Source of the DNA: an uncultured Planctomycetales bacterium
GTDB lineage: Bacteria > Omnitrophota > Gorgyraeia > Aquiviventales > Aquiviventaceae
Assembly: GCA_964373835.1 (NCBI GenBank)
Contig: CAYJWN010000001.1
Span: forward strand, 1 to 58,360
Direction of reading: 5' to 3'
Length of the DNA stretch: 58,360 nucleotides
This document shows, piece by piece, positions 39,183 to 58,360 of this stretch. Numbering within the stretch: position 1 is the stretch's first letter; each line of letters begins with the position of its first letter. The notes beneath the pieces were generated by a model. The model was not told the DNA's origin. It saw only the letters and a list, made by a program, of their open reading frames with translations, and did not search any database. The position numbers and the translations under genes were made by a program.

Positions 39183-39183
39183 C

Positions 39184-40755: not shown

Positions 40756-40763
40756 GCTCAGCC

Positions 40764-41792: not shown

Positions 41793-41961
41793 CCATCCAC
41801 ACAAACGTGCCCTTCTTCATCACGAAACACAGGCTCCCCCCGAGCTTCGCCAGCGCGCTCTTCTCGAACTGATCCGTCAGATCCTTCTTTTTCGTCTTCC
41901 GGACCGCGAGTTCGCCCTTGCCCTTCGGGAGCCGATAGTTGCCCTTTAGGAATTTCGGCAT
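41755..41961 (-). CDS. Small Lys-rich hypothetical protein (68 aa)
   Basis: ATG 41961 is preceded by GGAGGG with a 7-nt spacer, directly after the legI stop. Sequence: MPKFLKGNYRLPKGKGELAVRKTKKKDLTDQFEKSALAKLGG... I recognise no family. Confidence 0.4.
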   Translation of the reverse strand: MPKFLKGNYRLPKGKGELAVRKTKKKDLTDQFEKSALAKLGGSLCFVMKKGTFVWMDEKDDAARPTAR

Positions 41962-41977
41962 CCGTCACCCTCCGTGC

Positions 41978-43030
41978 TCACTCGACCATCCCCCAGGTCA
42001 ATACCGTACCGGCGGCGATGTCCGTTTTCGCCGTTCGGCCGATGAGCTGCGGACGCAGCGCCGGCGGCAGGCCGGTGCCCGGCCGCTTGATGGCGATGAG
42101 CCGCTCCGTCAACCGTGTACCTGCCGGAATAGCCAAGGCCGCCACCAGGCTCTTGCGCGCGACCGCGGCGGTATCGGCCTCCCCGGCCGTCGGCCGCTTC
42201 TGTCCATCCCCAAGCGCAGCCTCCACCGCCCGGATGCCGCGCACCAATGCGGAAAATTCCTGAGGTTCCGCTGAGACCTGGTGATCTGGACCCGGCAACG
42301 ACCGATCGAGCGTCAGGTGCTTTTCGATCACGCAGGCGCCTAAAGCGACGGCGGCGAGCGCCACTTCGATGCCTGCCGTATGGTCCGAGTACCCGACAGG
42401 GACGTGAAAGGCGTCGGCCATCGTCTGCATCGCCCGCAGGTTGGCTTCGGCAGCATTGGCAGGATAACTTGACACACAGTGCAGCAGCACCAGCTGATCG
42501 TTGCCAGACTCGTGGATCGCCTGCACCGCAGCGTTAACCTCGCCCAGATCCGACATCCCTGTAGACAGGATGATCGGTTTCGCTTTGCGCGCCACATGCG
42601 AGAGCAGGGGCAGGTTCGTCAGCTCACCAGAGCCGATCTTGAACGCCGGCACCCCCACACCCTCCAGGAGATCGGCGCTGTCTTCATCAAAGGGCGTTGA
42701 GAGGAACAAGAGGCGCTGCGCCTGCGCCTGCGCCTGAAGTTCCGGAAACGTCGCCGGAGGAAGCTCAAGACGACGGATCATCGCCAACTGCGACTCAATT
42801 GCCTCGGTCGCCTTCCGCTGATACTCGGCCTTTGGGGCCACAGGACTCACGAGCCGTTCGGCCTTAAACGTTTGAAACTTGACCGCATCCGCCCCAGCCG
42901 CGGCCGCCGCATCGATCAGGCGTTTCGCCAATTCGACGCGCCCATTATGATTGACCCCGGCCTCCGCGATGATGAAACAGCGCTGCCCCGGACCCACCAG
43001 GCGGCCGGCGATCATCACGGGACTTACCAT
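41978..43030 (-). CDS. legI: Nonulosonic acid synthase (NeuB/LegI family) with C-terminal SAF domain
   Basis: RCFIIAEAGVNHNGRVELAKRLIDAAAAAGADAVKFQTF, GYSDHT, C-terminal SAF-like IKRPGTGLPP. Start is ambiguous (ATG 43039, 43030 or 43015). The ORF-track N-terminal ~143 aa is rejected. Confidence 0.85.
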   Translation of the reverse strand: MVSPVMIAGRLVGPGQRCFIIAEAGVNHNGRVELAKRLIDAAAAAGADAVKFQTFKAERLVSPVAPKAEYQRKATEAIESQLAMIRRLELPPATFPELQAQAQAQRLLFLSTPFDEDSADLLEGVGVPAFKIGSGELTNLPLLSHVARKAKPIILSTGMSDLGEVNAAVQAIHESGNDQLVLLHCVSSYPANAAEANLRAMQTMADAFHVPVGYSDHTAGIEVALAAVALGACVIEKHLTLDRSLPGPDHQVSAEPQEFSALVRGIRAVEAALGDGQKRPTAGEADTAAVARKSLVAALAIPAGTRLTERLIAIKRPGTGLPPALRPQLIGRTAKTDIAAGTVLTWGMVE

Positions 43031-43869
43031 GCGGTCCATCCCCCATCCACCACCAGGCTCTGTCCGGTCACATACGCGGACAGGTCGCTGGCCAGATAGG
43101 CCACCGCCCCCTTGAGATCTCCTTCCGTCGCCATGCGGCCCAGGGGTATACGCGCCACGTAGCGCTGGTGAAACATCTCCGGCTGGTCGCGCCAAATCCC
43201 ACCGGGCGTGATGGCATTCACCCGAACGTGCGGCGCCAACGTGGTCGCCAGATACCGCGTCAACTGGAGCAGTCCCGCCTTGGACACCCCATAGGCAGCC
43301 GGATTGGCCATGTCCGTACCCTCGTAGAGATGGGGATCGGGCGCCGCCAGGCCGTAGATGGAGGCGAAGAAAATCACCGTCCCATGCCCCGATTCGACCA
43401 ACGCCTGCTTGGCTTCTTGGACCATGACAAAAGCAGAAGTCAAGTTCACCTGCATGGCGGCGTTCCACGCCTCTACGGTCTGCTGGTCAAACGGCACGGC
43501 CCATCCCGGCACGGGCGTCGTACCGACGTATGCCGCGCAGTGGATGAGAATTCCAATCCCACCCATCGACTCATGGGCCTGGCGAATCGCGCGGCGGGTC
43601 GCCTCCTCATCGCGCAGATCGCAGGGCAACGGCACCGCGCGTCCGCCCTTCGACGACTCTCCAAGCGATTTCACCCGTTGCTCCACCGCCGCCCCATCGT
43701 GGTCGAGCACGGCGACGCTGGCTCCCAACTCCATCAACGTCTCACAGATCACGGAGCCGACGTGCCCTGCCCCTCCTGTCACGAGCGCCTTGCGCCCGGA
43801 CAGGTCCATGAGTTGGGCAAGCGACCGTGCGCTGCGTGTGAGGCTGACGTCCGAAGCGGAGCCTCTCAT
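43024..43869 (-). CDS. Short-chain dehydrogenase/reductase
   Basis: KALVTGGAGHVGSVICETL, YGVSKAGLLQLTRYLA. ATGA overlap at 43866-43869. Confidence 0.75.
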   Translation of the reverse strand: MRGSASDVSLTRSARSLAQLMDLSGRKALVTGGAGHVGSVICETLMELGASVAVLDHDGAAVEQRVKSLGESSKGGRAVPLPCDLRDEEATRRAIRQAHESMGGIGILIHCAAYVGTTPVPGWAVPFDQQTVEAWNAAMQVNLTSAFVMVQEAKQALVESGHGTVIFFASIYGLAAPDPHLYEGTDMANPAAYGVSKAGLLQLTRYLATTLAPHVRVNAITPGGIWRDQPEMFHQRYVARIPLGRMATEGDLKGAVAYLASDLSAYVTGQSLVVDGGWTAW

Positions 43870-44612
43870 CGCACCGGACTCTCGCTGAGCCACGGCAGCA
43901 CAATGCGGCCGCTTTTCACCAGCAGCTCTGCGCGCTCAAACTGCTCCACGGTGTCGATCGACATCGCGCGTGATTCCGGGATTTCGTACAAGCGGTGCCG
44001 GCCATCCTGACGCCACGAGCGCGCCGACCGCACGAAGGCTGTGCGCCACAGGTAGAGCGAGCCGTTGATGCGGTAGACCGGCCGCACGTCCTGCCGGCGC
44101 TCCACGCGGGCCCCCTCCTCGAAGAGATCCCCCATCCACCCGTCTCGCTCCACGACACAATGCCAGATCGGGTTGAACTCCGGTCTCGACACCCCAATCA
44201 CCCCATCAGCGCGTGGCTGTTCTTGAAGGCGGCGCATGGCGCCGGAGATATCGGCAGGTTCTCGGGCCGGCGAGGTCGGATCCAGGAGGAGCAACAGATC
44301 ATACGACGCCGCTTCACGCGCCTCCACATGGGCCAGCGCATGCTGAAGGACCGGCCAGATCGGCGTGTCATCCTGGGCCAGCGCCGCCGGACGCACAAAC
44401 GGCACGTCGGCGCCGAAGCGCACCGCGACCTCGGCAATCTCCGGCGAATCCGTCGAAACGATGCACCGACCAATCTCAGGGCACAACTTCGTATACAAGA
44501 TCGTATGGGCAATAAGCGGCAGCTCCGCAAACGGGCGGAGGTTCTTGCCGGGCAGCCCCTTCGACCCGCCCCGCGCCGGAATAACTGCCAGGATTTTCGG
44601 CGCCGATCTCAT
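43866..44612 (-). CDS. legF: CMP-nonulosonic acid synthetase (acylneuraminate cytidylyltransferase, NeuA/LegF-like)
   Basis: ILAVIPARGGSKGLPGKNLRPFAELPLIAHTI. ATGA overlap at 44609-44612. Confidence 0.85.
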   Translation of the reverse strand: MRSAPKILAVIPARGGSKGLPGKNLRPFAELPLIAHTILYTKLCPEIGRCIVSTDSPEIAEVAVRFGADVPFVRPAALAQDDTPIWPVLQHALAHVEAREAASYDLLLLLDPTSPAREPADISGAMRRLQEQPRADGVIGVSRPEFNPIWHCVVERDGWMGDLFEEGARVERRQDVRPVYRINGSLYLWRTAFVRSARSWRQDGRHRLYEIPESRAMSIDTVEQFERAELLVKSGRIVLPWLSESPVR

Positions 44613-45592
44613 GGATACTCCACCCGTTCCTCGCACCGTTGCGCTGACGAGCGCCGAGCGGCGTCACAAACCGCCAACGCGCTCACCCCGTCGTCCCCTG
44701 TGGCAAGCCGTGGGTCATGCTGATCCCAGGACGCGTCAAGGAAGGCGCGGGCCTGGGCCGCAAACATCTTGTCACGGGTCTGGGCCGGACGTTCTACGTG
44801 AACCGGTTTGACGTCCGCTTCGATGGTCGCGGTTCCGGCCACCCCATCCCACTCAATCGTTCCGCGCTCACCACGAACCGTCAGACGCCTGCAGGACGGT
44901 CGCGAGAGGTAGTCAAGTTGCACAGACACCACACACCCCGTCGCTGTTTCCCAACTCACGTCCGCAAGCTCCTCTGCCTCAATCCCTAGCCGCCCAAAAT
45001 TCTTAAGACGTCCTTGTAGGCGCTGCGGCCAGCCGAAGAGCCAGCCCGCGTAGTCAATCTCGTGGATCAGGTCCCGGAGGACGCCGCCCTCGTGGGCCCG
45101 CGCGGAGTACGAATCTTGATACGGCCGGTCCGGCCGCCACTCGGGCAGGTACGACTGACAGGTAATCCGCACCGCGTGCAACGGACCCAGCTCCGGCAGC
45201 CACTCCCGGCATCGGGTCAGCGACGCGGAGAATCGCAGCACGCAGCCCACGAAGACCTGCCGTCGCAGCTGGAGCGCGCGCTGAAGCAAGCGATGACCCT
45301 CCGGTGCGTCTGTCGCCAGCGGCTTCTCGATGAGAACCTCTAGCCCGTGCTCCATGGCCGTCAGCGCGTCCGCGGTGTGTCGGCCGGTGTCGGTCGCCAC
45401 CACACAGTGGGAGGCTCCCTGCGCAGCCGCTTGGTCAAGATCCGCGGTGACCCTGTACCCTCCCCGCCGCAATGGGCTGAGGCGCTCCGGGCGCACCGGA
45501 ATCGCCAGGGGCTGCACCCCCGGCATCTGGCGGAGCACCTCGATATGACGCAGTCCGATGGTCCCGGTCCCGAGCACGGCGACAGTGGTCAT
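44609..45592 (-). CDS. Gfo/Idh/MocA-family oxidoreductase
   Basis: MTTVAVLGTGTIGLRHIEVL Rossmann N-terminus, with GAGG 7 nt upstream of ATG 45592. The alternative ATG 45655 would form an ATGA overlap with the upstream stop. Confidence 0.7.
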   Translation of the reverse strand: MTTVAVLGTGTIGLRHIEVLRQMPGVQPLAIPVRPERLSPLRRGGYRVTADLDQAAAQGASHCVVATDTGRHTADALTAMEHGLEVLIEKPLATDAPEGHRLLQRALQLRRQVFVGCVLRFSASLTRCREWLPELGPLHAVRITCQSYLPEWRPDRPYQDSYSARAHEGGVLRDLIHEIDYAGWLFGWPQRLQGRLKNFGRLGIEAEELADVSWETATGCVVSVQLDYLSRPSCRRLTVRGERGTIEWDGVAGTATIEADVKPVHVERPAQTRDKMFAAQARAFLDASWDQHDPRLATGDDGVSALAVCDAARRSSAQRCEERVEYP

Positions 45593-45651
45593 CTGGCTGC
45601 CTCGGCTGGTACGAGGCTCCTCCCTTCGGCGGTCGCTGACAACCGCACGGT

Positions 45652-46359
45652 TCATAGGAGTCCTCCGTTGATATCAAGGACTGCGCCGTTGATGTACGAG
45701 GCCGCGTCACTCGTGAGGAACGCGATGGCCTGGGCGACTTCGCTCGGCTCAGCCAACCGGCCGAGCGGATTCGCGCGCGCCGCCGACCGGAGGCGAGCCC
45801 TTGGCACGGCGCGCAGTAACATCTCGGACCTGGTTTCCGATGGGCAGATGCAGTTAACCGTGATATGGTTTTTGCCAAATTGGGCCGCTAGCTGACGGGT
45901 CAGGCCGATGACGGCGTACTTTGAGCTGGTATACGCCAGGGAGGCGCTTCGACTGTACGAACGCCCCGCGATGGACGACAGGTTCACGATGCGCCCATAG
46001 CGCTGCCGGCGCATGTGGCTCAACGCCTGCTTGCAGCAGAAATAGGTCCCGATGAGATTCGTCCTCAAAACAGCCTCCCAGTCCGCCAAACGCAACCGCA
46101 GCGGGTCGGTCATTGACACGATACCGGCGCAATTGACTAGAATGTCGACCCGTCCTAATCGCTCGACGATCCGGTGGAACGCCCGCGTCACCGATCGCTC
46201 CTCTCGCACATCACAACGGATGGATGTGTCAGTTTCGGCAAGAGACCGCGAGAGGCCGACGGTCCGGACGGCTTGCGCTCGGAACAGTTCGAGAGTGGCT
46301 CGGCCGATCCCACTGGACGCTCCTGTGACGACGGCCACCCGAGACTCCTCACGCGACAT
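45652..46359 (-). CDS. Short-chain dehydrogenase/reductase
   Basis: VAVVTGASSGIGRATLELF, NCAG, YTSSKYAVIGLTRQLA. Confidence 0.75.
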   Translation of the reverse strand: MSREESRVAVVTGASSGIGRATLELFRAQAVRTVGLSRSLAETDTSIRCDVREERSVTRAFHRIVERLGRVDILVNCAGIVSMTDPLRLRLADWEAVLRTNLIGTYFCCKQALSHMRRQRYGRIVNLSSIAGRSYSRSASLAYTSSKYAVIGLTRQLAAQFGKNHITVNCICPSETRSEMLLRAVPRARLRSAARANPLGRLAEPSEVAQAIAFLTSDAASYINGAVLDINGGLL

Positions 46360-47521
46360 AGACGTGTTCCATGTCCCTCGCCCCGCAGGCCAGCCGGATC
46401 CCCGGCGTCTCGCTGGTGCACCGGATCTCATGCGTCAACCCGCGGGGCAAGGAGACGACATCGCCCTGCGTGGCGGTCAGCACCGTCCCATCGCCGAGGT
46501 GCCACTCAAAGGTCCCTTCCAGGACAATCCACCACTCGGCATGGGTCACATGGCAGTGCTTGCGCGCCCCCTCGCCGGGCCGCTGGCAGATCAAGGCGAT
46601 TTGGTCGGTGGGGCTGTAGACCAGCAGATAGAGCCAGGGGGCCGGTCCCATCCGTTGCTTGATCGCGTCGAGGTTGCTGAGCCGTGTGTTGGCTCCTGAA
46701 TCCTCAAACCGTGCGACCCCATCACGCCCGATCAGGTCGTGCAGGCACCGCTCGATTCCCAGCACGCGCTCCGAGAAGCGAAACTGTCCCAGCCGTTCCT
46801 GCTGACGACGATGCTGGAGGCATGCCTCGATCATGTAGAGGTCATCCCACGTATCAGCATCCAGGGCCTGGATGCGATCGAGGACAAACGTCCCGGTCTT
46901 GCCGCAAAAGGTCGGGCCGGGCTCGCGCGGGTCGTTCCGCTGATACGAGGCCATGAACGAGGCCGTCTTCCAGCCGGAGAGCGCCCAGGTGATGAGCTGG
47001 ACCGGCTGCAACGTTTGCGTCGGATCTTTCTTCGAAGCCGAGAAGTTCAACGGCGCACCCTGATACAAGGTTTCAGTGTATCGCTCCTCCACGGACAGGA
47101 GTGAATCATAGCCGTCCCGCTCGAGGGTCTCCATGAACGTCTTCAGCGTGTCCGACTTCACCAGCGGCGAAGTCGTGTGGACGAGGGCCAGAGCACACGG
47201 TTCGCGCTGCTCCATGAAGTCATAGAGAAAGTGGTCGTGCGTCTGGCATCGGCTCCCAGTGCACTGACGCGATGCGTTGCTCATCAGGCAGGTCGAACCT
47301 CCTCGCTCCGGCCGGCGGCTGTAGAAGGAGACGCCGAGCATTGAGGCCATGGTCCCGAAGATCTCATGCTCCGAGTTGATGTAGATCTCGTCGAACACCC
47401 CGCTCTCCTGGCAGACCCGCGCCGCATAGAAAGCCAGCGGTGCCCCATCCACCAGGAGAAGGTTCTTGTCCGGAATCCGGGTGCTCCCTAGCAGCGCCGG
47501 AATCAGCGCGATGCGCTTCAT
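46349..47521 (-). CDS. Fusion protein: NeuA/KdsB-superfamily cytidylyltransferase domain plus C-terminal cupin domain
   Basis: MKRIALIPALLGSTRIPDKNLLLVDGAPLAFY (CTP-transferase type 3). There is a Cys-rich insert CLMSNASRQCTGSRCQTHDH. C-terminal cupin: HCHVTHAEWWIVLEGTFEWHLGDGTVLTATQGDVVSLPRGLTHE. ATGA overlap at 47518-47521. Confidence 0.7.
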   Translation of the reverse strand: MKRIALIPALLGSTRIPDKNLLLVDGAPLAFYAARVCQESGVFDEIYINSEHEIFGTMASMLGVSFYSRRPERGGSTCLMSNASRQCTGSRCQTHDHFLYDFMEQREPCALALVHTTSPLVKSDTLKTFMETLERDGYDSLLSVEERYTETLYQGAPLNFSASKKDPTQTLQPVQLITWALSGWKTASFMASYQRNDPREPGPTFCGKTGTFVLDRIQALDADTWDDLYMIEACLQHRRQQERLGQFRFSERVLGIERCLHDLIGRDGVARFEDSGANTRLSNLDAIKQRMGPAPWLYLLVYSPTDQIALICQRPGEGARKHCHVTHAEWWIVLEGTFEWHLGDGTVLTATQGDVVSLPRGLTHEIRCTSETPGIRLACGARDMEHVYVA

Positions 47522-48603
47522 CGGACCGTCGAGCGCCCCGACAGATGCGCCACTTCGTACTCCCGGCAGAGCCGATCCAGCACTTCCATGGCGGCGGGCG
47601 TTGCCTGCGCGGCCGCAAACTGCCTGCGCAGGGATAGTTCGTCCGCCTCGGTTGCCCCCCTCTGAGGCGGCTGCCACCCGTTGTCTCGGTAGACCTTCAG
47701 TTCCAGACCGTCGGCGATCAGGCGTCGAGGTACGCGCTGCCGCCGCAATTCCCGTCGGGTCGCCGATGTCATGGTTGTCCCCATGACTCGTTCCAACTGG
47801 TGGAGGTACGGCCAAGGCTCCAAGACAAATTGTTCAAATGGGATCGTCACAATCCGCCCGGCCTGCGCAGCACTCACATGGTTCAGGATGGTGTTGCGCA
47901 GCCGTCCCAGGTGGTCGATAGCATAGATCACGCGGTCCATCTGATCGCAAGAGAGATAGCGCACCTCCCACCCTTGGGCGAACCACGGCACAGCCCGTTC
48001 CCCCGCCTCCACCCAGATGGTGAAATCTCGGACATCGGTCCCGTACCGCGCAATATAGAGAAACCACTGCTTGAGCATGTAGAGCGGATGTCGGACGACT
48101 TCAACGATCACGAGGCGATCGTCCAGCGCCTCGATCAGCGGCTCACTGATCGGCAGGAGATTATGCGTGATCAGATTCAGGATGGGCCGCTCGCGCGCGA
48201 TGCGTCGCATGCTCGCCTCCCCATCGGGCTGGAAGAGGCGCCGCAGATAGCGCCAGGCGCGTGGATGGCGAAACGCACTGGAGAGATCCGCCGGCCGGAA
48301 GTTCGTTTCCCGGGACGCCGACAGGTCATACAGATCCAAGTCCGTAAGCATACGTACCATCGCCACCGCCGCATCGTCGGTAATACGCCCCAGATACCGC
48401 AGCGCACAGATGTACTCGAGCGGGTAGTTGTACTTCTCCACTTCGACACGATCGAGCGCGCTGACGATCGCCGACAACAGCGTCTTGCCGCATCCCGGCA
48501 GCCCGTCCACACAGACCACGCGCTCCGCCAGATGAGGCGGCCGGATAACCCGCACCGTTTCGGCGGGAGCGCGCAGCGACGGCGCCTCGCTCGTGAGCGT
48601 CAT
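47518..48603 (-). CDS. P-loop protein, sulfotransferase- or kinase-like
   Basis: VCVDGLPGCGKTLLS (Walker A / PAPS 5-prime-phosphosulfate-loop-like), and later VVRHPLYMLKQW, which resembles the RDP-type 3-prime-phosphate motif of sulfotransferases. ATGA overlaps at both ends. Confidence 0.45.
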   Translation of the reverse strand: MTLTSEAPSLRAPAETVRVIRPPHLAERVVCVDGLPGCGKTLLSAIVSALDRVEVEKYNYPLEYICALRYLGRITDDAAVAMVRMLTDLDLYDLSASRETNFRPADLSSAFRHPRAWRYLRRLFQPDGEASMRRIARERPILNLITHNLLPISEPLIEALDDRLVIVEVVRHPLYMLKQWFLYIARYGTDVRDFTIWVEAGERAVPWFAQGWEVRYLSCDQMDRVIYAIDHLGRLRNTILNHVSAAQAGRIVTIPFEQFVLEPWPYLHQLERVMGTTMTSATRRELRRQRVPRRLIADGLELKVYRDNGWQPPQRGATEADELSLRRQFAAAQATPAAMEVLDRLCREYEVAHLSGRSTVR

Positions 48604-49232
48604 CGCACGCTGGCTCCCAGGGGTTCGGCCGCGGCCACGCGGCGCTTGCGGACCGGCGGGCGCTCGCGGGTTGCCGCGATGACGAGGTCGCAGACCGCCA
48701 GCAGCCAGATGTGGTGCGTCATCTCCACCACGTTGTACGAACGGCTGTTGACCCAGAAGTTCAGATCCCCTAACTGCCGGAGTGGATTCGTCGCCGCAAA
48801 GCCGGTCAAGGTCACCAGCCGCAGGCCGCGGCCCCGCGCGTAGCGGGCAGCATTGACCATGTTCATGGACTTGCCGCTGGAACTGATGAGAATGACGAGA
48901 TCACCCGAATCGGCATAGAACTCCAGCGCCTTCTCCACCCACCGCTCGTAGCCGAAGTCATTGGCCAGGCACGTAATCAGGTCGGTCTCGTTGAAGTTGA
49001 CGCAGCGGATCCCCGCGGCCTTCGTGAAGTCCACCGCGCAGTGGCTCGCCATGGCAGCGCTGCCACCGTTGCCCGCGATGATGACCTTGCGGCCTTTGAC
49101 ATGCGCCTCCACGATCATCGCCTTGAGGGCCACGAGCTGATCCAGGACCCCGCCCTGAAGGAGCATCGTCCGGAACCGCTCGAGGTGCTCCGCCAGCCAG
49201 CTGCGCTCGTCCCCCACCACCGTGTTAGCCAT
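48600..49232 (-). CDS. SIS-domain sugar phosphate isomerase (GmhA-like), second copy
   Basis: KVIIAGNGGSAAMASHCAVDFTK, ILISSSGKSMN. Confidence 0.75.
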   Translation of the reverse strand: MANTVVGDERSWLAEHLERFRTMLLQGGVLDQLVALKAMIVEAHVKGRKVIIAGNGGSAAMASHCAVDFTKAAGIRCVNFNETDLITCLANDFGYERWVEKALEFYADSGDLVILISSSGKSMNMVNAARYARGRGLRLVTLTGFAATNPLRQLGDLNFWVNSRSYNVVEMTHHIWLLAVCDLVIAATRERPPVRKRRVAAAEPLGASVR

Positions 49233-50265
49233 TGGCGTACACCTTGTCGACGAGCTTCATCAGCGTCAGCGCATCCCGCGACATCCCGATCGTCACGGGC
49301 CGGTTCTGCTCGATGGCGGCGAGGAAGTGCTCGACCTCGTAGCGCCACGAGTTGTTCACGTCGAACCGGAAGTGCTCCTCATCGCTCCACGTCGCCGCCG
49401 GCGCCGTCGTGCGGTTCTTCACCACGGTCATCACCTCTTCGCCATAGGTACCCGAACTGGTCAGGAGCCCGTTGATGACGATGTAGCCCTTCTCCAGGAA
49501 GATCTCCAGTGAGAAGAGGTGCCGCCACTGAGTCATCGTGGAATGCAGCGATGCCACCACCCCCTGCCGGTTGCGCAGGATGGCGAAGACGTTGTCCTCG
49601 ACGTCGAGCTTCCAGTAGAGGTTCGAGACGTACGCATGCACCTCGTCGAAGTCGCCCCCCATCAGCAGGAAGAGGTCCAGCATGTGGATGCCCTGGTCGA
49701 TGAGGATGCCGCCGCCCGCCAGCTCACGCTTGGCGCGCCAGGTGCTGTAAAAGCTCTCATCGACGCTCTTGCCGTAGCGGCCGCGCATCCACAGCAGCCG
49801 GCCGTAGACGCCTGAATCGACTAGCTCCTTGGCCTTCTTGATGCTGTCGTGGTGCCGGTGGTTGAATCCGTACATCAGCTTGGAGCCTGACGACCGCTCC
49901 GCCTCGATGACCGCTTCGACCTCGCGCGCGGTGAAGGCTGGGGGTTTTTCGCAGAAGACGTGCTTGCCCGCCTTGAGGGCGGCGATCGTCAGCGGCTGAT
50001 TGAAGGCGTTCGGAGTGCAGATGAACACCGCCTCCACCGCCGGGTCGGCCAGCAACGCGTCGGCGGTGGCGTAGCGCTGAACCTCGGGCAGCAGGACGGC
50101 GGGCTGGGGCTCTGCGATTGCCACGACCCGTCCCTTCCCGTTCTGCGCGATCACCTGATTGCGGATCTGTCCCATCGTGCCAAACCCGACGATGCCGATG
50201 TTGATCAGCCTGCGGCGCGCTTCCTGTGTCCTGGCCTTCGGGGTAGCAATCACCGACTCGGGCAT
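49225..50265 (-). CDS. Gfo/Idh/MocA-family oxidoreductase
   Basis: INIGIVGFGTMGQIRNQVIA, VFCEKPPA, GGILIDQGIHMLD. GGGAGGTGG lies 5 nt upstream of ATG 50265. Confidence 0.8.
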   Translation of the reverse strand: MPESVIATPKARTQEARRRLINIGIVGFGTMGQIRNQVIAQNGKGRVVAIAEPQPAVLLPEVQRYATADALLADPAVEAVFICTPNAFNQPLTIAALKAGKHVFCEKPPAFTAREVEAVIEAERSSGSKLMYGFNHRHHDSIKKAKELVDSGVYGRLLWMRGRYGKSVDESFYSTWRAKRELAGGGILIDQGIHMLDLFLLMGGDFDEVHAYVSNLYWKLDVEDNVFAILRNRQGVVASLHSTMTQWRHLFSLEIFLEKGYIVINGLLTSSGTYGEEVMTVVKNRTTAPAATWSDEEHFRFDVNNSWRYEVEHFLAAIEQNRPVTIGMSRDALTLMKLVDKVYANG

Positions 50266-51356
50266 CGCACCACCTCCCGACAGTCTCTCAACGTCTGCAG
50301 ATACTCACGGCACGCCCCCCTCAGCCGCTCGTCATTGCGGTATCGGTCGCGGAAGACCTGCCCTGGTCCGCGGAGGAGGATGAGGGTCAGCGCGTCCTCC
50401 GTGTTCTTTTTATCGCGGCTGAGGGCGGTGAAAAACCGCTCCTCCGGCAGCGGGGTCTGCTCAAAGCCGGCGTAGTTGGCGGCCAGCAGCGGGTGCAGCT
50501 CGTCGTACGCCGCCGGCTGCAAGAACCCGAACTGCACAGAGAGGAAGTTTGCCAGATCCATGCCGATCGTGACCGCGATGCCGTGCGGCACGGCGTAGTC
50601 CGTCGCGCTCTCAATCGCGTGGCCGAAGCTGTGGCCGTAGTTCATCACCAGCCGCTCGGCCCGGTCGAACTCATCCGCCTCGATCTTGGCCTTCTTGATC
50701 TCCAGCGAGCGTCGGAGGTAGTGCGTCATGAGATCGGAGTCGTGCAGGAGCCGCGGGTAGTCGGCCGCGATGGCGCGCGCGTCCTCCCAGCCGGCGATGA
50801 TGTGGACCTTGATCATCTCCCCAACGCCCGAGCGTACGTCAGCCTCTGGCAGGGTCTTGAGCACCTCGGTTGAGATGACGATGTCGTCCGGCGGCGTGAA
50901 CGTGCCAAGCTGGTTCTTGTAGCCACCGACGTTCAGCGAAGATTTAGACCCGATGCAGCTATCCGCCTGAGCCAGAAGCGTTGTGGGGTAGAACCGCCAG
51001 CGGAGCCCCCGTAGCAGCGTGGCGGCAAGAAACGCGGTGATGTCCTGAACGATCCCCCCGCCCACAGCAATGAGCCGGTGGGTCCGCCGAATCCCCTTCT
51101 CCAGCAGGAACGTCACGTACGCCGGCAACTGCTCCAGCGATTTATTGGCCTCCGTCGGCTCAATCTGCAAGACCGACCGGCTAGCTAGTGCCCGCGCCAG
51201 GCGGCCCTCGTAGAGCCGGGCCACGCGCGCATCGATGAGCAGGTGCTCGTCGGCCCCCACACCCCCCTCCAGCCCGGCGAACGCCGGCCCGAACCGAACC
51301 GTGTACGGCCCGCGGTGCGACTGAATCACCAGATCACGCACAGACAAATCCTCCAT
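50250..51356 (-). CDS. 3-dehydroquinate synthase-like sugar phosphate cyclase superfamily protein
   Basis: LIAVGGGIVQDITAFLAATLLRGLRWRFYPTTLLAQADSCIGSKSSLN, GVGEMIKV, NYGHSFGHAIES...PHGIAVTIGM (DHQS metal/NAD motifs). First ATG at 51356; the ORF-track start at 51362 is TTG. Confidence 0.8.
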   Translation of the reverse strand: MEDLSVRDLVIQSHRGPYTVRFGPAFAGLEGGVGADEHLLIDARVARLYEGRLARALASRSVLQIEPTEANKSLEQLPAYVTFLLEKGIRRTHRLIAVGGGIVQDITAFLAATLLRGLRWRFYPTTLLAQADSCIGSKSSLNVGGYKNQLGTFTPPDDIVISTEVLKTLPEADVRSGVGEMIKVHIIAGWEDARAIAADYPRLLHDSDLMTHYLRRSLEIKKAKIEADEFDRAERLVMNYGHSFGHAIESATDYAVPHGIAVTIGMDLANFLSVQFGFLQPAAYDELHPLLAANYAGFEQTPLPEERFFTALSRDKKNTEDALTLILLRGPGQVFRDRYRNDERLRGACREYLQTLRDCREVVRCPSR

Positions 51357-52086
51357 CAACAATAATCTGCTGGCCGGTCAGGTACGAGTTGTCTTCACTG
51401 ACGAGAAACCGCACGTAGCGCGCCAGTTCCTCTGGACGGGCCAACCGTCCGATCGGGATCAGTCGGACCATCTCGGCAATCCCCTGTTCACCCAACACAT
51501 GGTGCGTCATATCGGTGTCGACGAACCCTGGAGCCAGACAATTTACCAGGACGTTATGAGCAGCAACTTCCAAAGCAAGCGCCCGGCTGAGCCCAAACAG
51601 ACCAAACTTGCTGGCTGAGTAGGCTGCACGTCCCGCTTTGCTGACCACACCAAAAATTGAAGTAATATTGACAATCCGTCCGAATCTACGCCGGCACATG
51701 CCTGGCACCACGGCCTGGCAGAACCTAAATGGCGCCACCACGTTCACCTGCTGGATCCGCAGGAAGTCTTCAAGCGCATAGGTGGTGGTGGGCCCTGCCT
51801 TGTTGATGCCCGCGTTATTGACGAGGATGGACAGTTCCATCTCCGCAACGGCTCGTAGAAGAGCGTCCAACTGCCCAGTGTCTGAGAAATCGCAGTTCAC
51901 GTACCGGCAGCGTGCGGGGAACTTGCCCTGTGGTGAGGTGCCGGTCACGGTGACGTCAAGACCGGCCTTGACAAGTTCCGCCGCGACCGCGGCCCCAATC
52001 CCACGGGTACCCCCGGTAACAAGCGCCTTCTTCAGACGTGGTGTGGACCGAGCAGAAATCCGCCGCACCTTAGTTGCTGTGCTCAT
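51334..52086 (-). CDS. Short-chain dehydrogenase/reductase (FabG-like)
   Basis: KKALVTGGTRGIGAAVAAEL, NNAG, YSASKFGLFGLSRALALE. Confidence 0.8.
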   Translation of the reverse strand: MSTATKVRRISARSTPRLKKALVTGGTRGIGAAVAAELVKAGLDVTVTGTSPQGKFPARCRYVNCDFSDTGQLDALLRAVAEMELSILVNNAGINKAGPTTTYALEDFLRIQQVNVVAPFRFCQAVVPGMCRRRFGRIVNITSIFGVVSKAGRAAYSASKFGLFGLSRALALEVAAHNVLVNCLAPGFVDTDMTHHVLGEQGIAEMVRLIPIGRLARPEELARYVRFLVSEDNSYLTGQQIIVDGGFVCA

Positions 52087-52119
52087 GGGTGGACGTGTTC
52101 ACGTGAGCCATGATCAACC

Positions 52120-53940
52120 TCAGACATATAACTTGGCGTACTCCCCTTGCACATGCATTAATGCCTCGTGTGTTCCGTTTTCAATAATCCGCCCGCCTTG
52201 TAGGAGCACAATCTGATCAGCCCCTTTAATCGTGCTGAGTCGATGAGCAATTACAATGACCACCGTGTCCTTGCGGAATGATTCGATGGACACGTACACG
52301 GCTTTTTCCGTCAGATTGTCGAGCGCGCTGGTGGCTTCATCAAAGATCAAGACTTCCGGCCGCCTCAAGATGGCCCTGGCAATCGACAATCGCTGGCATT
52401 GTCCGCCGGACAGCTTGACTCCGCGGTCTCCCACAACAGTCTCATAGCCCTCAGGCAAGCTCAAAACGAACTCGTGGAGCTGGGCGAGCCTCGCCGCCCA
52501 CTCGACTTCTTCTTGAGTCACGGCGCTATCCCACAGGGCGATGTTTTGGCGCACGCTTTCGTTAAACAGGAACACGTCCTGCGGGACGTAGCCAATCTTC
52601 CGACGCCACGCCGCTAAGTCCAACTCTTCAAGGTCGATCCCATTGACGAGGATCTTGCCTGACGTGGGGCGGAACAACCTCATGAGCAGGTTCGCCAACG
52701 TACTTTTGCCTGACCCGGTTGGGCCGACGATTGCCGTGATTTCTCCACGGGTCATCTTCATGTTGAGACCCGTGAGGACCATCGGAAGCGCCGGTCCATA
52801 TTGAAAAGCCAGGTCCACCAACTGCAATTCCTTCACCCGTCCGCTCCGTAACCCTCCCCGTGGCTCCGTCGGTGTGGACTCCAGGATCTCCTCGATCACT
52901 TCCACATGTCGCCACTCACTCCGTAATTGAACGTTGGTTGAATGGACCGTCGCAAAAAGCGGGCTCAGACGCCTCAAGGCCACAAAGAAGACCACGATCT
53001 CGGAAAATTGCATGTGAACCCACCGCCAACCCAACGTGATGCCTGCCAACGCAATCACCACAATCCCAACGACCACTTCGTTCAAGCAGTTCGTGCCATG
53101 CTTCAGCCAGACCAAGCGCCGCCGCGGCACGAGCTCGCCAGCCAAGACCGATTCCTGCTGCGCAACAACGCTGGCTGCCAGCCCATGCGCCTTCATGATC
53201 TTGAGCCCATCAATCGCATCGACATCGATTTCGTTTTCCTTGGTATTGAGCTCATAAATCTGACGTCCGCACTCCGAAGATTTTCGGTCGACCGTGCCCC
53301 GCCACACCTGCACCCAGACCAATGCCGTGACACCCACGCCCAACGTTGCCCACCATGAGAGATAGAGCATCAACCCAACCAGGACGAAGCCGTTGAATGC
53401 CGATGAGAGGAGTATGAATGTCAAGTAGATGAAGTTATACATCGACCTGGAAGGCGTGTTGACGTCAAAGAGAATCGATCCACGGCCCTTCGCCAGCAAA
53501 TACCCGTACTCAGCCTCCAGCATCTTGGTCAGCAAGGTGAGCTTGAATTCGCGGCGGAGCTTCTGGGCGATCACTGTCCCAACATACTGTTGGATCGAAA
53601 AGAATGCACTGCGCAGGATGGCCATGCTCGTGACCATGGCCAAGAAGACAAAAAGGATGATGTTCGTGGTCGTGCTCAGCCCTACCGCCTTCATCGCTGA
53701 GACCACCATGACGACAATTCGGTTCTCTGATGCGCGTTCCGACTTCATTGCAATATCGAGCAGCGGCACGCCAAGCCCCACCGTGGTCATCTCCAGCATC
53801 GCGACCGCAAGCATCAGCCCAAACACGGTTGCGAACTGCCACAGATGAGGACGGATCGCCGCCCTCCAGTAAAACCCCTGGAACCACCGGCGCGGAAACA
53901 AGACCGCGCGTCGAAGCAACTGACTAATTGGCTCTCGCAT
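52120..53940 (-). CDS. Fused TMD-NBD ABC exporter (MsbA/PglK-like half transporter)
   Basis: Six-helix N-terminal TMD. Walker A GPTGSGKSTLANLL, signature LSGGQCQRLSIARAIL, Walker B LIFDEATSALD. No clear SD before ATG 53940. Confidence 0.85.
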   Translation of the reverse strand: MREPISQLLRRAVLFPRRWFQGFYWRAAIRPHLWQFATVFGLMLAVAMLEMTTVGLGVPLLDIAMKSERASENRIVVMVVSAMKAVGLSTTTNIILFVFLAMVTSMAILRSAFFSIQQYVGTVIAQKLRREFKLTLLTKMLEAEYGYLLAKGRGSILFDVNTPSRSMYNFIYLTFILLSSAFNGFVLVGLMLYLSWWATLGVGVTALVWVQVWRGTVDRKSSECGRQIYELNTKENEIDVDAIDGLKIMKAHGLAASVVAQQESVLAGELVPRRRLVWLKHGTNCLNEVVVGIVVIALAGITLGWRWVHMQFSEIVVFFVALRRLSPLFATVHSTNVQLRSEWRHVEVIEEILESTPTEPRGGLRSGRVKELQLVDLAFQYGPALPMVLTGLNMKMTRGEITAIVGPTGSGKSTLANLLMRLFRPTSGKILVNGIDLEELDLAAWRRKIGYVPQDVFLFNESVRQNIALWDSAVTQEEVEWAARLAQLHEFVLSLPEGYETVVGDRGVKLSGGQCQRLSIARAILRRPEVLIFDEATSALDNLTEKAVYVSIESFRKDTVVIVIAHRLSTIKGADQIVLLQGGRIIENGTHEALMHVQGEYAKLYV

Positions 53941-54147: not shown

Positions 54148-54891
54148 TTAGGACACGGTGGAGGGTGCGGACAGCTCAAGGCGCAGCCCAGCCTTCACGG
54201 CATCCTGTCGGAACATCCGGACAGTCTCCACTGAAAATTCCGTGAGGTCCTTGCCGACCAGCGGGAGTTTGGCCAGCACCTCGCTCGTGGCGGTAATGAT
54301 GTGGCAGCCCACCGCCTCCGCCTGGAAGATGTTCAGCAGCTCCCGCGGGCTGGCCCAGATGAGTTCCATGCGCGGGCGGGCACGCATGATCCGAAGGGAC
54401 TCGGCGACCAGCGGCACGGGATCGCGACCGGTATCAGCGATCCGTCCGGCAAAGATGGAGATGTAGCTGCTCAGCTCTTCGGCCATACAGGCGGTGATGT
54501 CAGCGACTTGTTGTGGCGTCATCACGGCCGTCACATTGAGTTTGACGCCCGCCGCGGAGAGCTTGCGGATCAGCGGGCCGGAGAATTCGCCACACGTGTT
54601 CGTCACGGGAATTTTCACGTAGACGTTGCCCCCCCACGAGGCGATCTCGCGCGCCTGCCGCTCCATATCCGCGAAGTCGTCCGAGAATACCTCAAAGGAA
54701 ATCGGCCGGTCCGCAATGAGGGCCAGCACCTCGCGCGCGAAGCGGCCGTAGTCGCGGACACCCCCTTTGCGCATCAGCGTCGGGTTCGTAGTAAACCCCG
54801 TGATCAGCGGATTCCTGGCCAGCTCCGCCATCGTCGTCAAATCGGTCCCGTCGGCGAACAGCTTGACGTGCAATTCGCGCACACCGCTCAT
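54148..54891 (-). CDS. Transaldolase/fructose-6-phosphate aldolase family protein (short TalC/FSA-like type)
   Basis: LFADGTDLTTMAELARNPLITGFTTNPTLM, VYVKIPVT (Schiff-base Lys), SIFAGRIADTG. GGGGAG lies 6-7 nt upstream of ATG 54891. Confidence 0.75.
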   Translation of the reverse strand: MSGVRELHVKLFADGTDLTTMAELARNPLITGFTTNPTLMRKGGVRDYGRFAREVLALIADRPISFEVFSDDFADMERQAREIASWGGNVYVKIPVTNTCGEFSGPLIRKLSAAGVKLNVTAVMTPQQVADITACMAEELSSYISIFAGRIADTGRDPVPLVAESLRIMRARPRMELIWASPRELLNIFQAEAVGCHIITATSEVLAKLPLVGKDLTEFSVETVRMFRQDAVKAGLRLELSAPSTVS

Positions 54892-54934
54892 CGGTTGCTC
54901 CCCTGTAGGTGACGATCCAGGAACACGGTCCGGT

Positions 54935-55648
54935 TCATGGCATCTCTGATGCGGTCGTCGCCGCGAGGGCCGGCGTCGGCGTGGGAAACGAGGAGACAAC
55001 CTCCAGCCGTTCATCAGGCAGGGGTGTCGTCGACAAGGACGGCATGCCGGGCATGGGCAGCACGATCATCCGCTCATGGGAGATGCCCAGTGAGAAGAAC
55101 CGCTGCAGGCCTGATGCCATATCGGACAATGAGGAGATGATCAGCCGGTCATAGGCGGAAGGTGGGATCTCTTCGATGCGCTGGACAGGATGCCCCAGAA
55201 AGTGCTGTCGAACGGTGGACTCATCGACGACGCCGACAAGCTCCAGGCCGATTTCTCGAATGATCAGGAAGGCGATCTCGGCCAGCTCCCCGGTCCCATA
55301 CAGCAGGACGCGATGGTGGCCGGTCTGGGCCAGGATGGCGAGCTGCTCGCGCAAGCAATGCCGCACCCGGCCGTACAACTGAAGGGAATACTGAATGAAT
55401 TCGTAGGTCAGGCGGGATTTTTCGAGAATGCCCGTCGGGGTGATCAGGTAGCGAATCCGATTGGGCTTGGTTCCGCTGATCTTGATGTAACCTTTCTTCA
55501 CTAGGCGCCGTAGCATCAAGTTGGCCAGCCCCAGCGCCACGCCGATCCGCTTGGCCAGTTCCCGTTGGGTGGCGCTCGGATTCTGCGTCACTTCCTCAAG
55601 GAGCGACATGTCCCGATAGGAGCTCGGCTCCATGCGGCCTCCAGTCAT
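54935..55648 (-). CDS. Winged-helix DNA-binding protein fused to a Rossmann-like domain (putative regulator)
   Basis: [33 protein letters not shown] (wHTH), then [35 protein letters not shown] overlap at 55645-55648. Confidence 0.6.
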
Positions 55649-55860
55649 GCGCGGCCGCTTTCCTTCCGAAACCAGCTGATGGTGCGCTGCAGTCCCTCAT
55701 CTAACCCGATTTTCGGCTCCCAGGAGAGCTGTTGTCGCGCGCAGGTCAGGTCCGGCCGCCGGTGCTTGGGATCGTCCACCGGCAGGAGACGGAACTCGAT
55801 GCGGCTTCCCGTGACGGGCACGGGCTTCAGGACCGTCAGGGCTAGCTCGCGGGAGTCCCA
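55645..55860 (-). pseudogene. 3-prime remnant (about 70 codons) of a second, divergent UDP-glucuronate decarboxylase-like gene
   Basis: [60 protein letters not shown] parallels [62 protein letters not shown] of the intact gene at 56459. No N-terminal part is present in any frame. Confidence 0.6.
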
Positions 55861-55939
55861 GAGCTTTTTCAGCCGAAGCGAGGCGAGCCCGCGCGTGGGC
55901 TGAATGACAAACGTCGCCTGTTGGCTCATGGGCTGCGCC

Positions 55940-56038
55940 TCACAAACGCCGATAGGTGCGCTCCCGGAATGCCAAAAGCTTCGCCAGATCTTCCGCAATG
56001 AGCTGCAGCTTGCGCTGCACGAACTCAGGGCGCACCAT
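55940..56038 (-). pseudogene. Truncated HepT/HEPN (DUF86) toxin remnant, 32 codons
   Basis: My own translation gives ATG GTG CGC CCT GAG TTC GTG CAG CGC AAG CTG CAG CTC ATT GCG GAA GAT CTG GCG AAG ... TGA, i.e. [32 protein letters not shown]. It starts inside the last 14 nt of the nucleotidyltransferase gene, as in mntA-hepT pairs. It resembles HepT N-terminal helices, but the Rx4-6H part is missing. Confidence 0.45.
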
Positions 56039-56462
56039 GAAGCTCCTGCGAAATGAACGCCATCTTCTTGTGGAACAACGTCTCCTCCAGGGCTCTCAGG
56101 TCAGCCGAGTCCATGAAGTCGCGGTACGCGAAGGCCTTATACTCAAGAAAGTCCAACGGCTCACCATACAGCAGGGTTCCGCCGCTGAGGATCTCGTACC
56201 GGAACAACGGATCGGCTTGGCGCAGCAAGACCACATCCACCTCGTATCCAGCAAAGACATCCGACAACGCCTGGGAGGCGGCCCCCCACCACTCCAGGCT
56301 TCCGTCGCTGCGCCCAACGAGTGCGAGGTCCACGTCACTTTCTGGTCCTGGCGGCGGTGTCCCAGTGGAGCGCGATCCGTACAGGATGACCAGTTGAAGC
56401 CCCAGCTCTTGGCAGACGCGCTCCAGACGTTGCGCGTCATAGCTGACAAACGGCGAGGTCAT
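56025..56462 (-). CDS. Minimal nucleotidyltransferase (MntA-type antitoxin-like), now orphan
   Basis: [26 protein letters not shown] (GS...DxD NTase motif). ATG 56462 forms an ATGA overlap with the UXS stop (56459-56462). Confidence 0.7.
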
Positions 56463-58360
56463 CTGGTGCTCAAAGCGGCAAACCAACCCATCGTGACGGA
56501 AAGCCCCTCCTGTAAGCTGACGCGCGGTCGCCAGCCGTTTAGCAGCCGCGTGGCCACCGTGATATCAGGACAGCGCTGCTTCGGGTCATCCTGCGGCAGG
56601 GGGCGAAACACGATCGGGCTCTTGCTGTTCGTCAACTCGAGGATGCGCTGAGCGAGCGCAAGAATCGTGTACTCCTCAGGATTGCCGAGGTTGACAGGGT
56701 CGTGATAGTCGGCCCGGGTCAGCCGGACAATTCCCTCGACCAGATCGTCAATATAGCAGAAGGAGCGGGTTTGGCTGCCGTCGCCAAACACGGTCAGGGG
56801 TTCCCCGCGGAGCGCTTGGGTGACGAACGCGGGGATTGCGCGGCCGTCTTCGGCTCGCATCCGTGGACCGTACGTGTTGTGGCAAAATACCCCATTCCCT
56901 GCCACGAAATTTTCAGTACCCGGAACGGAGAAGTCGTACACAAAGTTCGTCGGCTCGCAGGGTTCGATCGCGGTAATTTTCGACCAGATCAAATCGCCGG
57001 TTCGCGTGGCGTTGAGGGTTTGCCGAACGCCGGTATCCCACCGTAAGACGTCAAAGGAATCCACCTCGCAGACCGTGACTCTGAAAAACGGAAACCGACG
57101 ATCGCCGTATCGTTGACGAAACCTGGTCGTATACTGTCCTACGGAAGCCACGATCCCAAAACGCAGCAAAAGATACGTCAGATCGGTCGCCAGCTCTTCG
57201 CTCGTGGTGCTGAAGCACAATTCGTTACCGAGTTTTTTCCCACTGTGGGTCCCATCGCCTTCCCGGTAGCCCTCCAAGACATGCTTGACACGAGAGAGCG
57301 GCAACTGCATCACCCACGCTGGAATTCTCTTGTCGCGGAGCACACCGATCATCTCATCGAAGAGCACATACAACAGCTGCGAATGCACAAACAACCCAGG
57401 AGCACGCTGGCGGCTGGCCGGAACCATGACCGTGTGACACCCAAGACCGGTGAGAATCGCTGCGGCCCGATCGAGGAACACCTGGTCCGAGGAGAATGTC
57501 AACAAGGCACTCTTGCCGGGTTGACGATGTGACGAGCCCTCAGCCAAAAAGAACCCAATCAGCCAGAGGAGGTCCGATGTCAGCGGGATCGTGGCTGGAA
57601 GCCGAATACGCGCTCCACCTTTGTAGACACGCAGCTGGGCATCAGACGGAATGGCCACACCCAATCGACGAACCACCGCAAGGGGCAACATCCCTTCGCG
57701 CCAGTACTTCCGCAAAGCGCACGAGAGGCCGTTGTTGAGTCGCTTCGCATGGAATCTGTTGCTAGCAGCCAAGAAGGTACGGATCTCCCCACGACGACGC
57801 TCGATGACCTGCCGCAGTGAGGGGGAGTGGATGGCATAATTCCACAAGGCGTCTTCGGATCGTCGTTGCATCAGTACTTCAGCCAGATGGAACGCCTCCA
57901 CGTCCTTTTCAACGACAGGAACACGCGCTGGAATCGCGACGTAATCACCCACTTGTAGCTGTCGGACAGGAATAGCGGTTGGCTGGCTATGTGCGTCCCT
58001 CGTAAACACGCTATGATCCCCCGTCACCTTGACCCTCCTGCCGTACCGAAGAGACAGGGCGTAGCAGTCCGTGTGACAGGGGTGCTTAATCATTGCGCTG
58101 ACGGGCGCAAGTGAAATTTGACACGTCACTGGATCAAACGTCGGCACCAAGATGCTGGGAGACTCGAGCGCCAACCGTGACTCCACTCGGTTCACGTAGG
58201 TTCCGATCGGTTCAAGATGCATATCATGATCGTTAAAAAGCATCACGGTCTCATCCGCGAGGATGCTGTTAAAGATCCTGACGATGCGCGTATCGACGCC
58301 ATGCGCCCGGTGATAGGCCATCGTCATGGCTTCGGCGAATCGCTTCGCCTCGTCGTAGAC
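56459..58360 (-). CDS. UDP-glucuronate decarboxylase (UXS)/extended-SDR dehydratase-like gene, 5-prime partial (continues beyond the window), interrupted by an intein
   Basis: The reading frame is open to the window edge: [31 protein letters not shown] | intein | [49 protein letters not shown]...[15 protein letters not shown]. The Rossmann N-terminus lies outside the window. Confidence 0.85.
56876..58267 (-). mobile_element. Full-length intein (464 aa) with LAGLIDADG homing-endonuclease domain
   Basis: The intein splits the conserved RIFN|TYGPRM motif. Block [11 protein letters not shown] (Ser1), block [11 protein letters not shown] (TxxH), LAGLIDADG-like [12 protein letters not shown] and [12 protein letters not shown], blocks [25 protein letters not shown], followed by Thr+1. 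Codon positions were verified on the nucleotide sequence (aac 56878-56876, acg 56875-56873). Confidence 0.85.

Follow-up and report, generated by a model that had tools for sequence, protein, structure and literature searches.

The window analysed here, a 58,360-nucleotide stretch of DNA (contig CAYJWN010000001.1, positions 1 to 58,360, GenBank assembly GCA_964373835.1, from an uncultured bacterium assigned by GTDB to Omnitrophota), ends on its right-hand side within a gene predicted to encode UDP-glucuronate decarboxylase (UDP-xylose synthase, UXS), the reading frame of which contains an in-frame insert of 464 codons. With a probability of about 0.88, and as judged from sequence comparison and a structural model, this insert represents an intein of canonical class-1 type (Ser1 ... 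His-Asn / Thr+1) that carries a LAGLIDADG homing endonuclease and appears to be functional and horizontally moved. Inteins have usually been described as limited to proteins of replication, repair and nucleotide metabolism, while in this case the insertion falls near the active site of an enzyme that makes glycan precursors, and an intact and apparently mobile intein is found at the head of a large cluster for glycan and nonulosonic-acid biosynthesis. The mechanism itself is textbook, and the single copy adds a data point but nothing conceptual.

Splicing and endonuclease motifs of the insert

The host open reading frame (ORF) is located on the minus strand (56459..58360), is open at the window end (58360), and consists of 633 uninterrupted sense codons followed by a TGA stop (56459..56461, minus strand). 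Translation of 56876..58267 (minus strand) gave exactly 464 codons without a stop, starting with SILADETV and ending in NGVFCHN (the last five residues reading VFCHN), flanked by RIFN on the N-terminal side and by TYGPRM on the C-terminal side. These coordinates, the length and the RIFN/TYGPRM junction (here and below, a slash between motifs marks a junction) agreed with an earlier sequence-only reading of the same DNA, and the Ser1, TxxH, terminal HN and Thr+1 residues listed there, as well as two LAGLIDADG-type helices, were all located in the translation. The numbering of the insert as aa 21-484 in that reading fits a count from an internal ATG at 58327; the placement of the feature on the minus strand was absent from it. 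The elements of the gene are given below, where conservation counts refer to the 120 best of the database homologues (121 sequences including that of the window, where stated as x/121).

58268..58360, minus strand: 3' end of the N-extein, 31 codons (VYDEAKR...VRIFN) with the YxxxK motif of short-chain dehydrogenases/reductases (SDRs), aligning with Tyr147/Lys151...Asn176 of human UXS1 (hUXS1); the gene extends past the window end
56876..58267, minus strand: predicted complete intein of 464 aa, with a Hint splicing domain, a linker/DNA-recognition-like region and a LAGLIDADG homing endonuclease (Pfam, AlphaFold2, Foldseek, phmmer)
58238..58267, minus strand: splicing block A, with the codon of the nucleophile Ser1 at 58265..58267 (Ser1 in 120/120 homologues)
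58013..58024, minus strand: block B, TxxH, as Thr82-Gly-Asp-His85 (TGDH, intein aa 82-85); T82, D84 and H85 invariant in the alignment
57533..57574, minus strand: LAGLIDADG motif 1 (...FFLAEG), intein aa 232-245, with the putative catalytic acidic residue Glu243; aligns with LLGYYVSEG of PI-PkoII
57245..57289, minus strand: LAGLIDADG motif 2 (...YREGDG), intein aa 327-341, with the putative catalytic acidic residue Asp338; the Pfam LAGLIDADG_3 match spans aa 330-382
56897..56947, minus strand: splicing block F; V443, D445, F446, E452, N453, F454 and G457 invariant
56876..56896, minus strand: splicing block G, NGVFCHN, ending in His463-Asn464 (TIGR01443 match; penultimate His in 118/121 and terminal Asn in 121/121 sequences)
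56459..56875, minus strand: C-extein, 138 codons plus TGA, with the Thr+1 codon at 56873..56875 in TYGPRM (Thr+1 in 121/121 sequences) and the UXS-specific Arg in KQRCPD (corresponding to hUXS1 Arg277)

Profile searches for Hint and LAGLIDADG domains, suggested by the sequence-only reading as a check, matched both. Intein_splicing (PF14890, E=2.5e-19) and LAGLIDADG_3 (PF14528, E=8.7e-13) exceeded the Pfam gathering scores, the NCBIfam model intein_Cterm (TIGR01443) passed its cutoff (29.6 bits relative to 15.6), and the other NCBIfam matches were to intein segments within archaeal and bacterial intein-containing proteins. When the insert was removed, the Epimerase and GDP_Man_Dehyd SDR models of Pfam were continuous over the junction. 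The nearest protein of solved structure by phmmer against the PDB was PI-PkoII (2cw7, E=3.4e-24), to which both LAGLIDADG motifs aligned. An AlphaFold2 model of the intein, built from 67 homologues (predicted local distance difference test score (pLDDT) 92.8, predicted template modelling score (pTM) 0.91, with one low-confidence loop at aa 340-345, just past LAGLIDADG motif 2), agreed with the profile matches: the best Foldseek match in the PDB was again PI-PkoII (2cw7, E=6.6e-31, TMq 0.70), and all top matches were intein-homing endonucleases (PI-PkoII, the Tli VMA and Pho VMA inteins, PI-PfuI and PI-SceI), followed at lower scores by mini-inteins, which matched the splicing domain, and by I-DmoI, which matched the endonuclease core. 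Matches to the alpha-beta-beta-alpha-beta-beta-alpha core came from PI-PkoII, PI-PfuI and PI-SceI, in each case from the endonuclease domain, and from the free-standing I-DmoI (TMt 0.6-0.67). In the homologue alignment, Glu243 and Asp338 were each conserved in at least 90% of the sequences, and the residues G238, A242 and G244 of motif 1 and G333, G337, G339 and H341 of motif 2 were invariant.

PI-PkoII, the Pol-2 intein of the T. kodakarensis DNA polymerase (2cw7/2cw8), has in common with the window intein a Hint domain, an extra region of DNA-recognition type and a two-motif LAGLIDADG endonuclease (aligned motifs LLGYYVSEG and FLEGYFIGDG), but the two are only about 21% identical, PI-PkoII is longer (537 aa relative to 464 aa), and it interrupts a family-B DNA polymerase from an archaeon. 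The Pho RadA intein and other class-1 inteins follow the same splicing-block logic, and their C-terminal splicing region could be aligned (4e2u/2lqm, E~1e-4). The Pho RadA intein also uses Thr+1, but differs in being a mini-intein without endonuclease, in having Cys1, and in being hosted by a recombinase.

Many homologues bear the insert too, which would also be seen if the 464 residues were an ordinary accessory domain of an enzyme subfamily and no intein at all. This candidate was rejected, and has next to no likelihood, on the Hint and LAGLIDADG matches of the Pfam profiles and of the Foldseek-compared fold, on the borders of the insert, which fall exactly at Ser1 and at His-Asn/Thr+1, and on a gapless alignment with human UXS1, which, like the close orthologues, has no such segment and is contiguous at the junction. 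Intein-less homologues aligning continuously through the 464 residues had been named as evidence that would speak for a normal domain; the intein-less homologues found here are without the whole segment.

The host enzyme, empty sites and probable intein mobility

The spliced extein (169 aa visible) was aligned to human UXS1 (4gll/2b69) with E=2.8e-51 and with no gap at RIFN/TYGPRM, while the next family scored 1e-27, GDP-mannose 3,5-epimerase 1e-24 and RmlB 5e-15. Equivalents of hUXS1 Tyr147 and Lys151 (YDEAK), Asn176, Thr177 and Arg277 (the Arg of DDPKQRCPD) were present in the extein, and the intein is positioned between the Asn176 and Thr177 equivalents. In hUXS1 numbering, Arg277 is invariant in UXS and replaced in epimerases, and Thr118-Ser119-Glu120 constitutes the UXS signature (PMC3438964). 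Because hUXS1 was the best match by 24 orders of magnitude and the UXS-specific Arg277 is present, the host, judged by alignment, is a UXS orthologue, an assignment more specific than 'UXS/RmlB-like'. The UDP-glucuronate decarboxylase-like host of the sequence-only reading, for which alignment of the spliced extein had been put forward as a check, was thereby upheld.

The insert parts the enzyme into a Rossmann NAD/YxxxK half and a substrate-binding half with the Arg277 equivalent, and for this reason the unspliced precursor is very likely inactive. Dependence of the glycan-precursor supply on splicing can reasonably be inferred, provided that the rest of the genome encodes no further UXS. By established class-1 intein chemistry, translation would give one precursor of about 780 aa (~87 kDa), in which Ser1 would undergo an N-O acyl shift, the resulting ester would be attacked by Thr+1 (transesterification), Asn464 would cyclise with the aid of His463 and release the intein, and an O-N shift would restore the peptide bond RIFN-TYGPRM. 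This would yield a ligated UXS of about 315 aa (~35 kDa) and liberate the intein-endonuclease (about 52 kDa), and the latter would be expected to cut intein-less UXS alleles at the highly conserved ...ATCTTCAAC/ACCTACGGCCC..., upon which the intein would be copied into the cut allele during repair (homing). Because its nucleophiles are Ser and Thr, the intein would not be subject to the redox traps of Cys inteins, and this cysteine-independent Ser1/Thr+1 chemistry could be of interest to engineers seeking redox-insensitive inteins.

Compatible with a functional and mobile intein, but rather improbable, is that the element has been co-opted as a conditional switch (responding to temperature, pH or a metabolite) that gates UDP-xylose to the adjacent glycan cluster. 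Such a role would be in line with the insertion in the active-site region, from which an inactive precursor should result, with the location of the gene in front of a large set of genes for glycans and nonulosonic acids, with the persistence of the allele over many phyla, and with precedent, since some other inteins, that of Pho RadA among them, have been documented to splice conditionally (cited in PMC4760082). However, the sequence carries no regulatory sign, the Ser and Thr nucleophiles exclude the known disulfide and redox traps, and the sporadic distribution together with the signs of horizontal transfer is what a selfish element predicts.

Empty insertion sites were obtained by scanning one genome per GTDB species with six peptides, five of which were specific to the window copy and the sixth of which (QDDPKQRC) is an extein motif. 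The scan produced 80 loci, of which 79 held an intein-less UXS, a proportion that by the design of the scan does not measure intein prevalence. The closest exteins in the scan were those of the Omnitrophota metagenome-assembled genomes (MAGs) L002-L005, L007 and L029 (71-80% aa identity), all intein-less, and these aligned to the spliced window sequence as one segment with the junction uninterrupted. At 78 intein-less loci the motif R[IVL]FN[TV][YFH]GP was continuous at the insertion site, and because the DNA of the site is conserved over these 78 loci save at third codon positions (in L003 it reads CGCATCGTGCGGATCTTCAACACCTACGGCCCGCGCATGCGCGCC), it is a plausible endonuclease target. Two of the MAG loci, L003 and L005, share the downstream gene order of the window (UXS, a winged-helix (helix-turn-helix) regulator and transaldolase/FSA), and the window accordingly derives most likely from an Omnitrophota-like bacterium. 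Since Omnitrophota also includes an intein-bearing UXS (P0058), the distribution of the intein is patchy within the phylum, as expected for a mobile element.

The composition of the insert is atypical for the window. The G+C content was 56.2% in the intein (64.9% at third codon positions, GC3), 62.6% in the C-extein (GC3 75.4%) and 63.2% in the window, and merely 0.5% of 1392-nt windows in this sequence were equally low; a hand count in the sequence-only reading (about 50-57% in the insert, about 62% in the C-extein) had pointed the same way. The nearest intein-bearing relative (P0001, JGI 3300027835 contig Ga0209515_10028206, locus L081; 88% identical) has neighbours different from those in the window, namely SxtJ, DUF5989 and an aminotransferase. 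Between the window and this relative, the intein sequences were 86.5% identical at the nucleotide level and the C-extein sequences 70.8%, and identical residues were encoded by identical codons in 71% and 48% of cases in the intein and extein, respectively (Fisher p=2e-6). Synonymous divergence (dS) was 0.55 in the intein and 1.83 in the exteins, as obtained by a simple Nei-Gojobori estimate from one sequence pair with 158 extein codons near saturation. The ratio of non-synonymous to synonymous divergence (dN/dS) was 0.10 in the intein and 0.11 in the endonuclease core, with the exteins also at about 0.1. Because intein dS is below extein dS and the neighbouring genes are unrelated, the simplest reading is that the inteins of the window and of L081 share a younger ancestor than do their host genes, which implies horizontal movement of the intein; the simplest reading of the ratios is that the endonuclease has been kept under purifying selection. 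Taken in combination, the dS contrast, dN/dS and the low G+C content point to an intein that is predicted to be functional and was probably acquired horizontally, in agreement with the invasive origin and the active-looking homing element previously suggested for this insert.

Several points weigh against this interpretation. The intein dS relative to L081 was not uniform, being 0.37 in the N-terminal part and 1.2 in the last 64 codons, a rise towards the C-terminus that may mark a recombination breakpoint; the dS contrast has the narrow basis given above, and the estimate could be biased by the lower GC3 of the intein. The NCBIfam model intein_Nterm scored 23.1 bits, slightly below its cutoff of 24.5, and splicing and endonuclease activity are predicted from conserved residues. 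The N-extein beyond its last 31 codons lies outside the window, where there may be an upstream frameshift or stop. For the same reason, that the portion in the window starts 3' of it, the UXS signature Thr118-Ser119-Glu120 and the N-terminal GxxGxxG site for NAD are visible only in homologues; the intein-bearing homologues show GGAGFIGSH and ASTSEVYGDP (alignment consensus, and the sequence of P0002).

It is possible, if on balance unlikely, that the intein splices but that its endonuclease is dead, the element now being a fixed, vertically inherited passenger unable to home. Many full-length inteins have inactive endonucleases, and in the structural model the low-confidence loop at aa 340-345 directly follows the second LAGLIDADG motif. 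On the other hand, the two catalytic acidic residues are conserved together with the motifs around them, dN/dS in the endonuclease core is as low as stated above, the synonymous divergence of the intein is far below that of the exteins when compared with a relative in another genomic context, the nearest relatives of the host gene are intein-less, and the composition of the intein is atypical for the window. Very improbable is a state of decay, with a splicing-defective intein or a pseudogene as host and UXS supplied from another copy. A 62-codon UXS 3' remnant at about 55660..55848 does show gene turnover at the locus, and the N-extein is largely outside the window; decay is contradicted, however, by the 633 uninterrupted codons with all splicing residues intact, by dN/dS of about 0.1 in both intein and exteins, and by the overlap of the UXS stop with the start of the next gene (ATGA), which suggests an expressed operon.

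Inteins at the same site in other proteins

At least 120 clusters at 90% identity, drawn from many phyla of bacteria and archaea, were found to carry an intein at the UXS site, with 52-89% identity to the window protein over the whole query; as the lowest listed score was still 737 bits, many more exist. All of the listed clusters matched PF01370/PF16363 and PF14890, and all except P0030 also matched PF14528. Named carriers include Rhodothermus marinus (P0072), Thermus composti (P0095), Gemmataceae (P0086), Omnitrophota (P0058), KSB1, Nealsonbacteria of the candidate phyla radiation (CPR; P0054) and Altiarchaeales (P0055), of which Rhodothermus marinus and Thermus composti represent experimentally tractable cases. 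The intein-UXS proteins in the databases share with the window protein the host, the insertion point (RIFN/S...HN/TYGP), the Ser1/Thr+1 chemistry and the domain set, and represent the same allele; the window copy is distinct in sequence, its best match being P0001 (88%), which has another genomic neighbourhood. Some copies are labelled 'nucleoside-diphosphate-sugar epimerase/intein/homing endonuclease' by JGI, while the NCBI names are 'GDP-mannose 4,6-dehydratase' or 'hypothetical'. Entries named 'Ter Ndse' in InBase may be inteins of sugar epimerases.

According to the survey PMC4760082, 61.5% and 21.7% of bacterial intein hosts belong to COG categories L and F, respectively, and no sugar-nucleotide SDR is among its top 15 bacterial intein hosts, while its Table 2 includes an intein in an archaeal UDP-glucose dehydrogenase (UDP-GlcDH, COG1004) from Euryarchaeota. 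The latter shows that an intein of an enzyme acting on nucleotide sugars, as in the window, has been published before, but it has another host fold and insertion site and is reported from Euryarchaeota. Literature searches, which covered the main text of that survey, found no paper on inteins of UXS or of epimerases/dehydratases. The sequence-only reading had called the host unusual, which holds relative to published surveys but not in the databases, where the allele is abundant across phyla. The allele, common in databases, is apparently undiscussed in the open literature, and its wide occurrence, along with the site in a sister SDR family (dTDP-glucose 4,6-dehydratase; see below), could justify a short survey.

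When the intein alone was compared with 50%-identity representatives, 75 clusters were found at E<=1e-30, and the nearest of these were all extended SDRs with an intein at the same position, directly following xFN. The related SDR inteins (P0124, P0126, P0138, P0175, P0181 and P0190) were about 30-45% identical to that of the window; for the distant homologues, only junctions with boundaries checked by eye were used. The host of P0124 is dTDP-glucose 4,6-dehydratase (spliced extein matching TIGR01181, E=5e-83), and those of P0126 and P0138 are extended SDRs for which the best NCBIfam models were GalE and LegB, below cutoff and near the dTDP-glucose dehydratase score; P0190 (YAVAKV, RPYN/S...HN/TYN) resembles P0138, as judged by motif only. 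In P0175 and P0181, Cys1 and Cys+1 take the place of Ser1 and Thr+1, so that the nucleophile pairs co-vary among the SDR inteins, Ser1 occurring with Thr/Ser+1 and Cys1 with Cys+1. More distant relatives of the intein were in hosts of the classical kind, namely Top6B and a FlaI ATPase (family search) and a RadA-like protein (motifs only). The window copy thus belongs to a large set of SDR inteins, old and diversified, on which the literature has apparently remained largely silent.

A further-reaching generalisation, and quite an unlikely one, is that the loop following the YxxxK helix of extended SDRs (xFN followed by T/S/C-x-G) constitutes an undescribed major intein hot-spot in UXS, RmlB and further SDRs of both bacteria and archaea, that inteins are widespread in glycan-precursor metabolism, and that in clusters such as that of the window splicing could gate UDP-xylose supply post-translationally. 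If this were true, inteins in glycan-precursor metabolism would be far wider in occurrence than surveys centred on replication and repair suggest, and the SDR-wide pattern is the part of these results most worth following.

Surroundings of the UXS locus

The genes adjoining UXS and those of the downstream cluster are as follows.

56025..56486, minus strand: MNT-type nucleotidyltransferase (antitoxin-like; Pfam Polbeta, 1e-12), the ATG of which overlaps the UXS stop (ATGA, 56459..56462)
about 55939..56038, minus strand: 32-codon ORF overlapping the MNT stop and resembling the start of a HEPN/DUF86 toxin
about 55660..55848 in ORF 55645..55998, minus strand: well-preserved 62-codon 3' remnant of a second, different UXS (positions 247-308 of 311 in the hidden Markov model (HMM) of the extein, E=2.5e-20)
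54148..55014, minus strand: transaldolase/FSA gene
52120..53940, minus strand: ABC exporter
50250..51362, minus strand: DHQ-synthase-like enzyme
46349..47815, minus strand: cytidylyltransferase-cupin fusion
41978..43468, minus strand: NeuB with SAF domain
40764..41804, minus strand: MptE-like (PF01973) protein
37983..39398, minus strand: UDP-GlcNAc 2-epimerase

The 32-codon ORF had no Pfam match, its HEPN/DUF86 assignment being an impression, and together with the MNT gene it is possibly a toxin-antitoxin pair that has lost its toxin. The UXS remnant directly follows this ORF, shares 57% of the 60 aligned C-terminal residues with P0002, and coincides exactly in position with the end of the intact intein-less UXS of the syntenic Omnitrophota, abutting the regulator gene. 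The most economical reading is that the locus once held two UXS genes, or received a UXS-MNT-HEPN segment, and subsequently lost the greater part of the toxin gene and of the other UXS by deletion, which, if it holds, suggests that the intein-bearing copy is the sole UXS left at the locus.

In the rest of the window, a long minus-strand cluster for glycan and nonulosonic-acid biosynthesis (about 37983..53940) is located downstream of UXS and contains, in addition to the genes listed, two GFO/IDH/MocA oxidoreductases and two classical SDRs. The pairing of the DHQ-synthase-like enzyme with the transaldolase hints at a C7-sugar or cyclitol branch. In the established UDP-xylose pathway, UDP-glucose dehydrogenase acts one step upstream of UXS; a gene for it was not found in the window. 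Four long minus-strand ORFs within the glycan cluster had no significant Pfam match (29072..31450, 27426..29333, 47518..48603 and 34558..35787; 792, 635, 361 and 409 aa, respectively), the last of them giving a non-significant match to FtsH_ext (E=0.19); some of the four overlap their neighbours, so that their gene boundaries are uncertain. Three further extended-SDR paralogues in the window (32462..33727, 4861..5760 and 8894..9826, minus strand) are intein-less, and their sequences at the homologous site read RPFNTFGPR, LRLFT/FGPH and RCGNVYGG, respectively.

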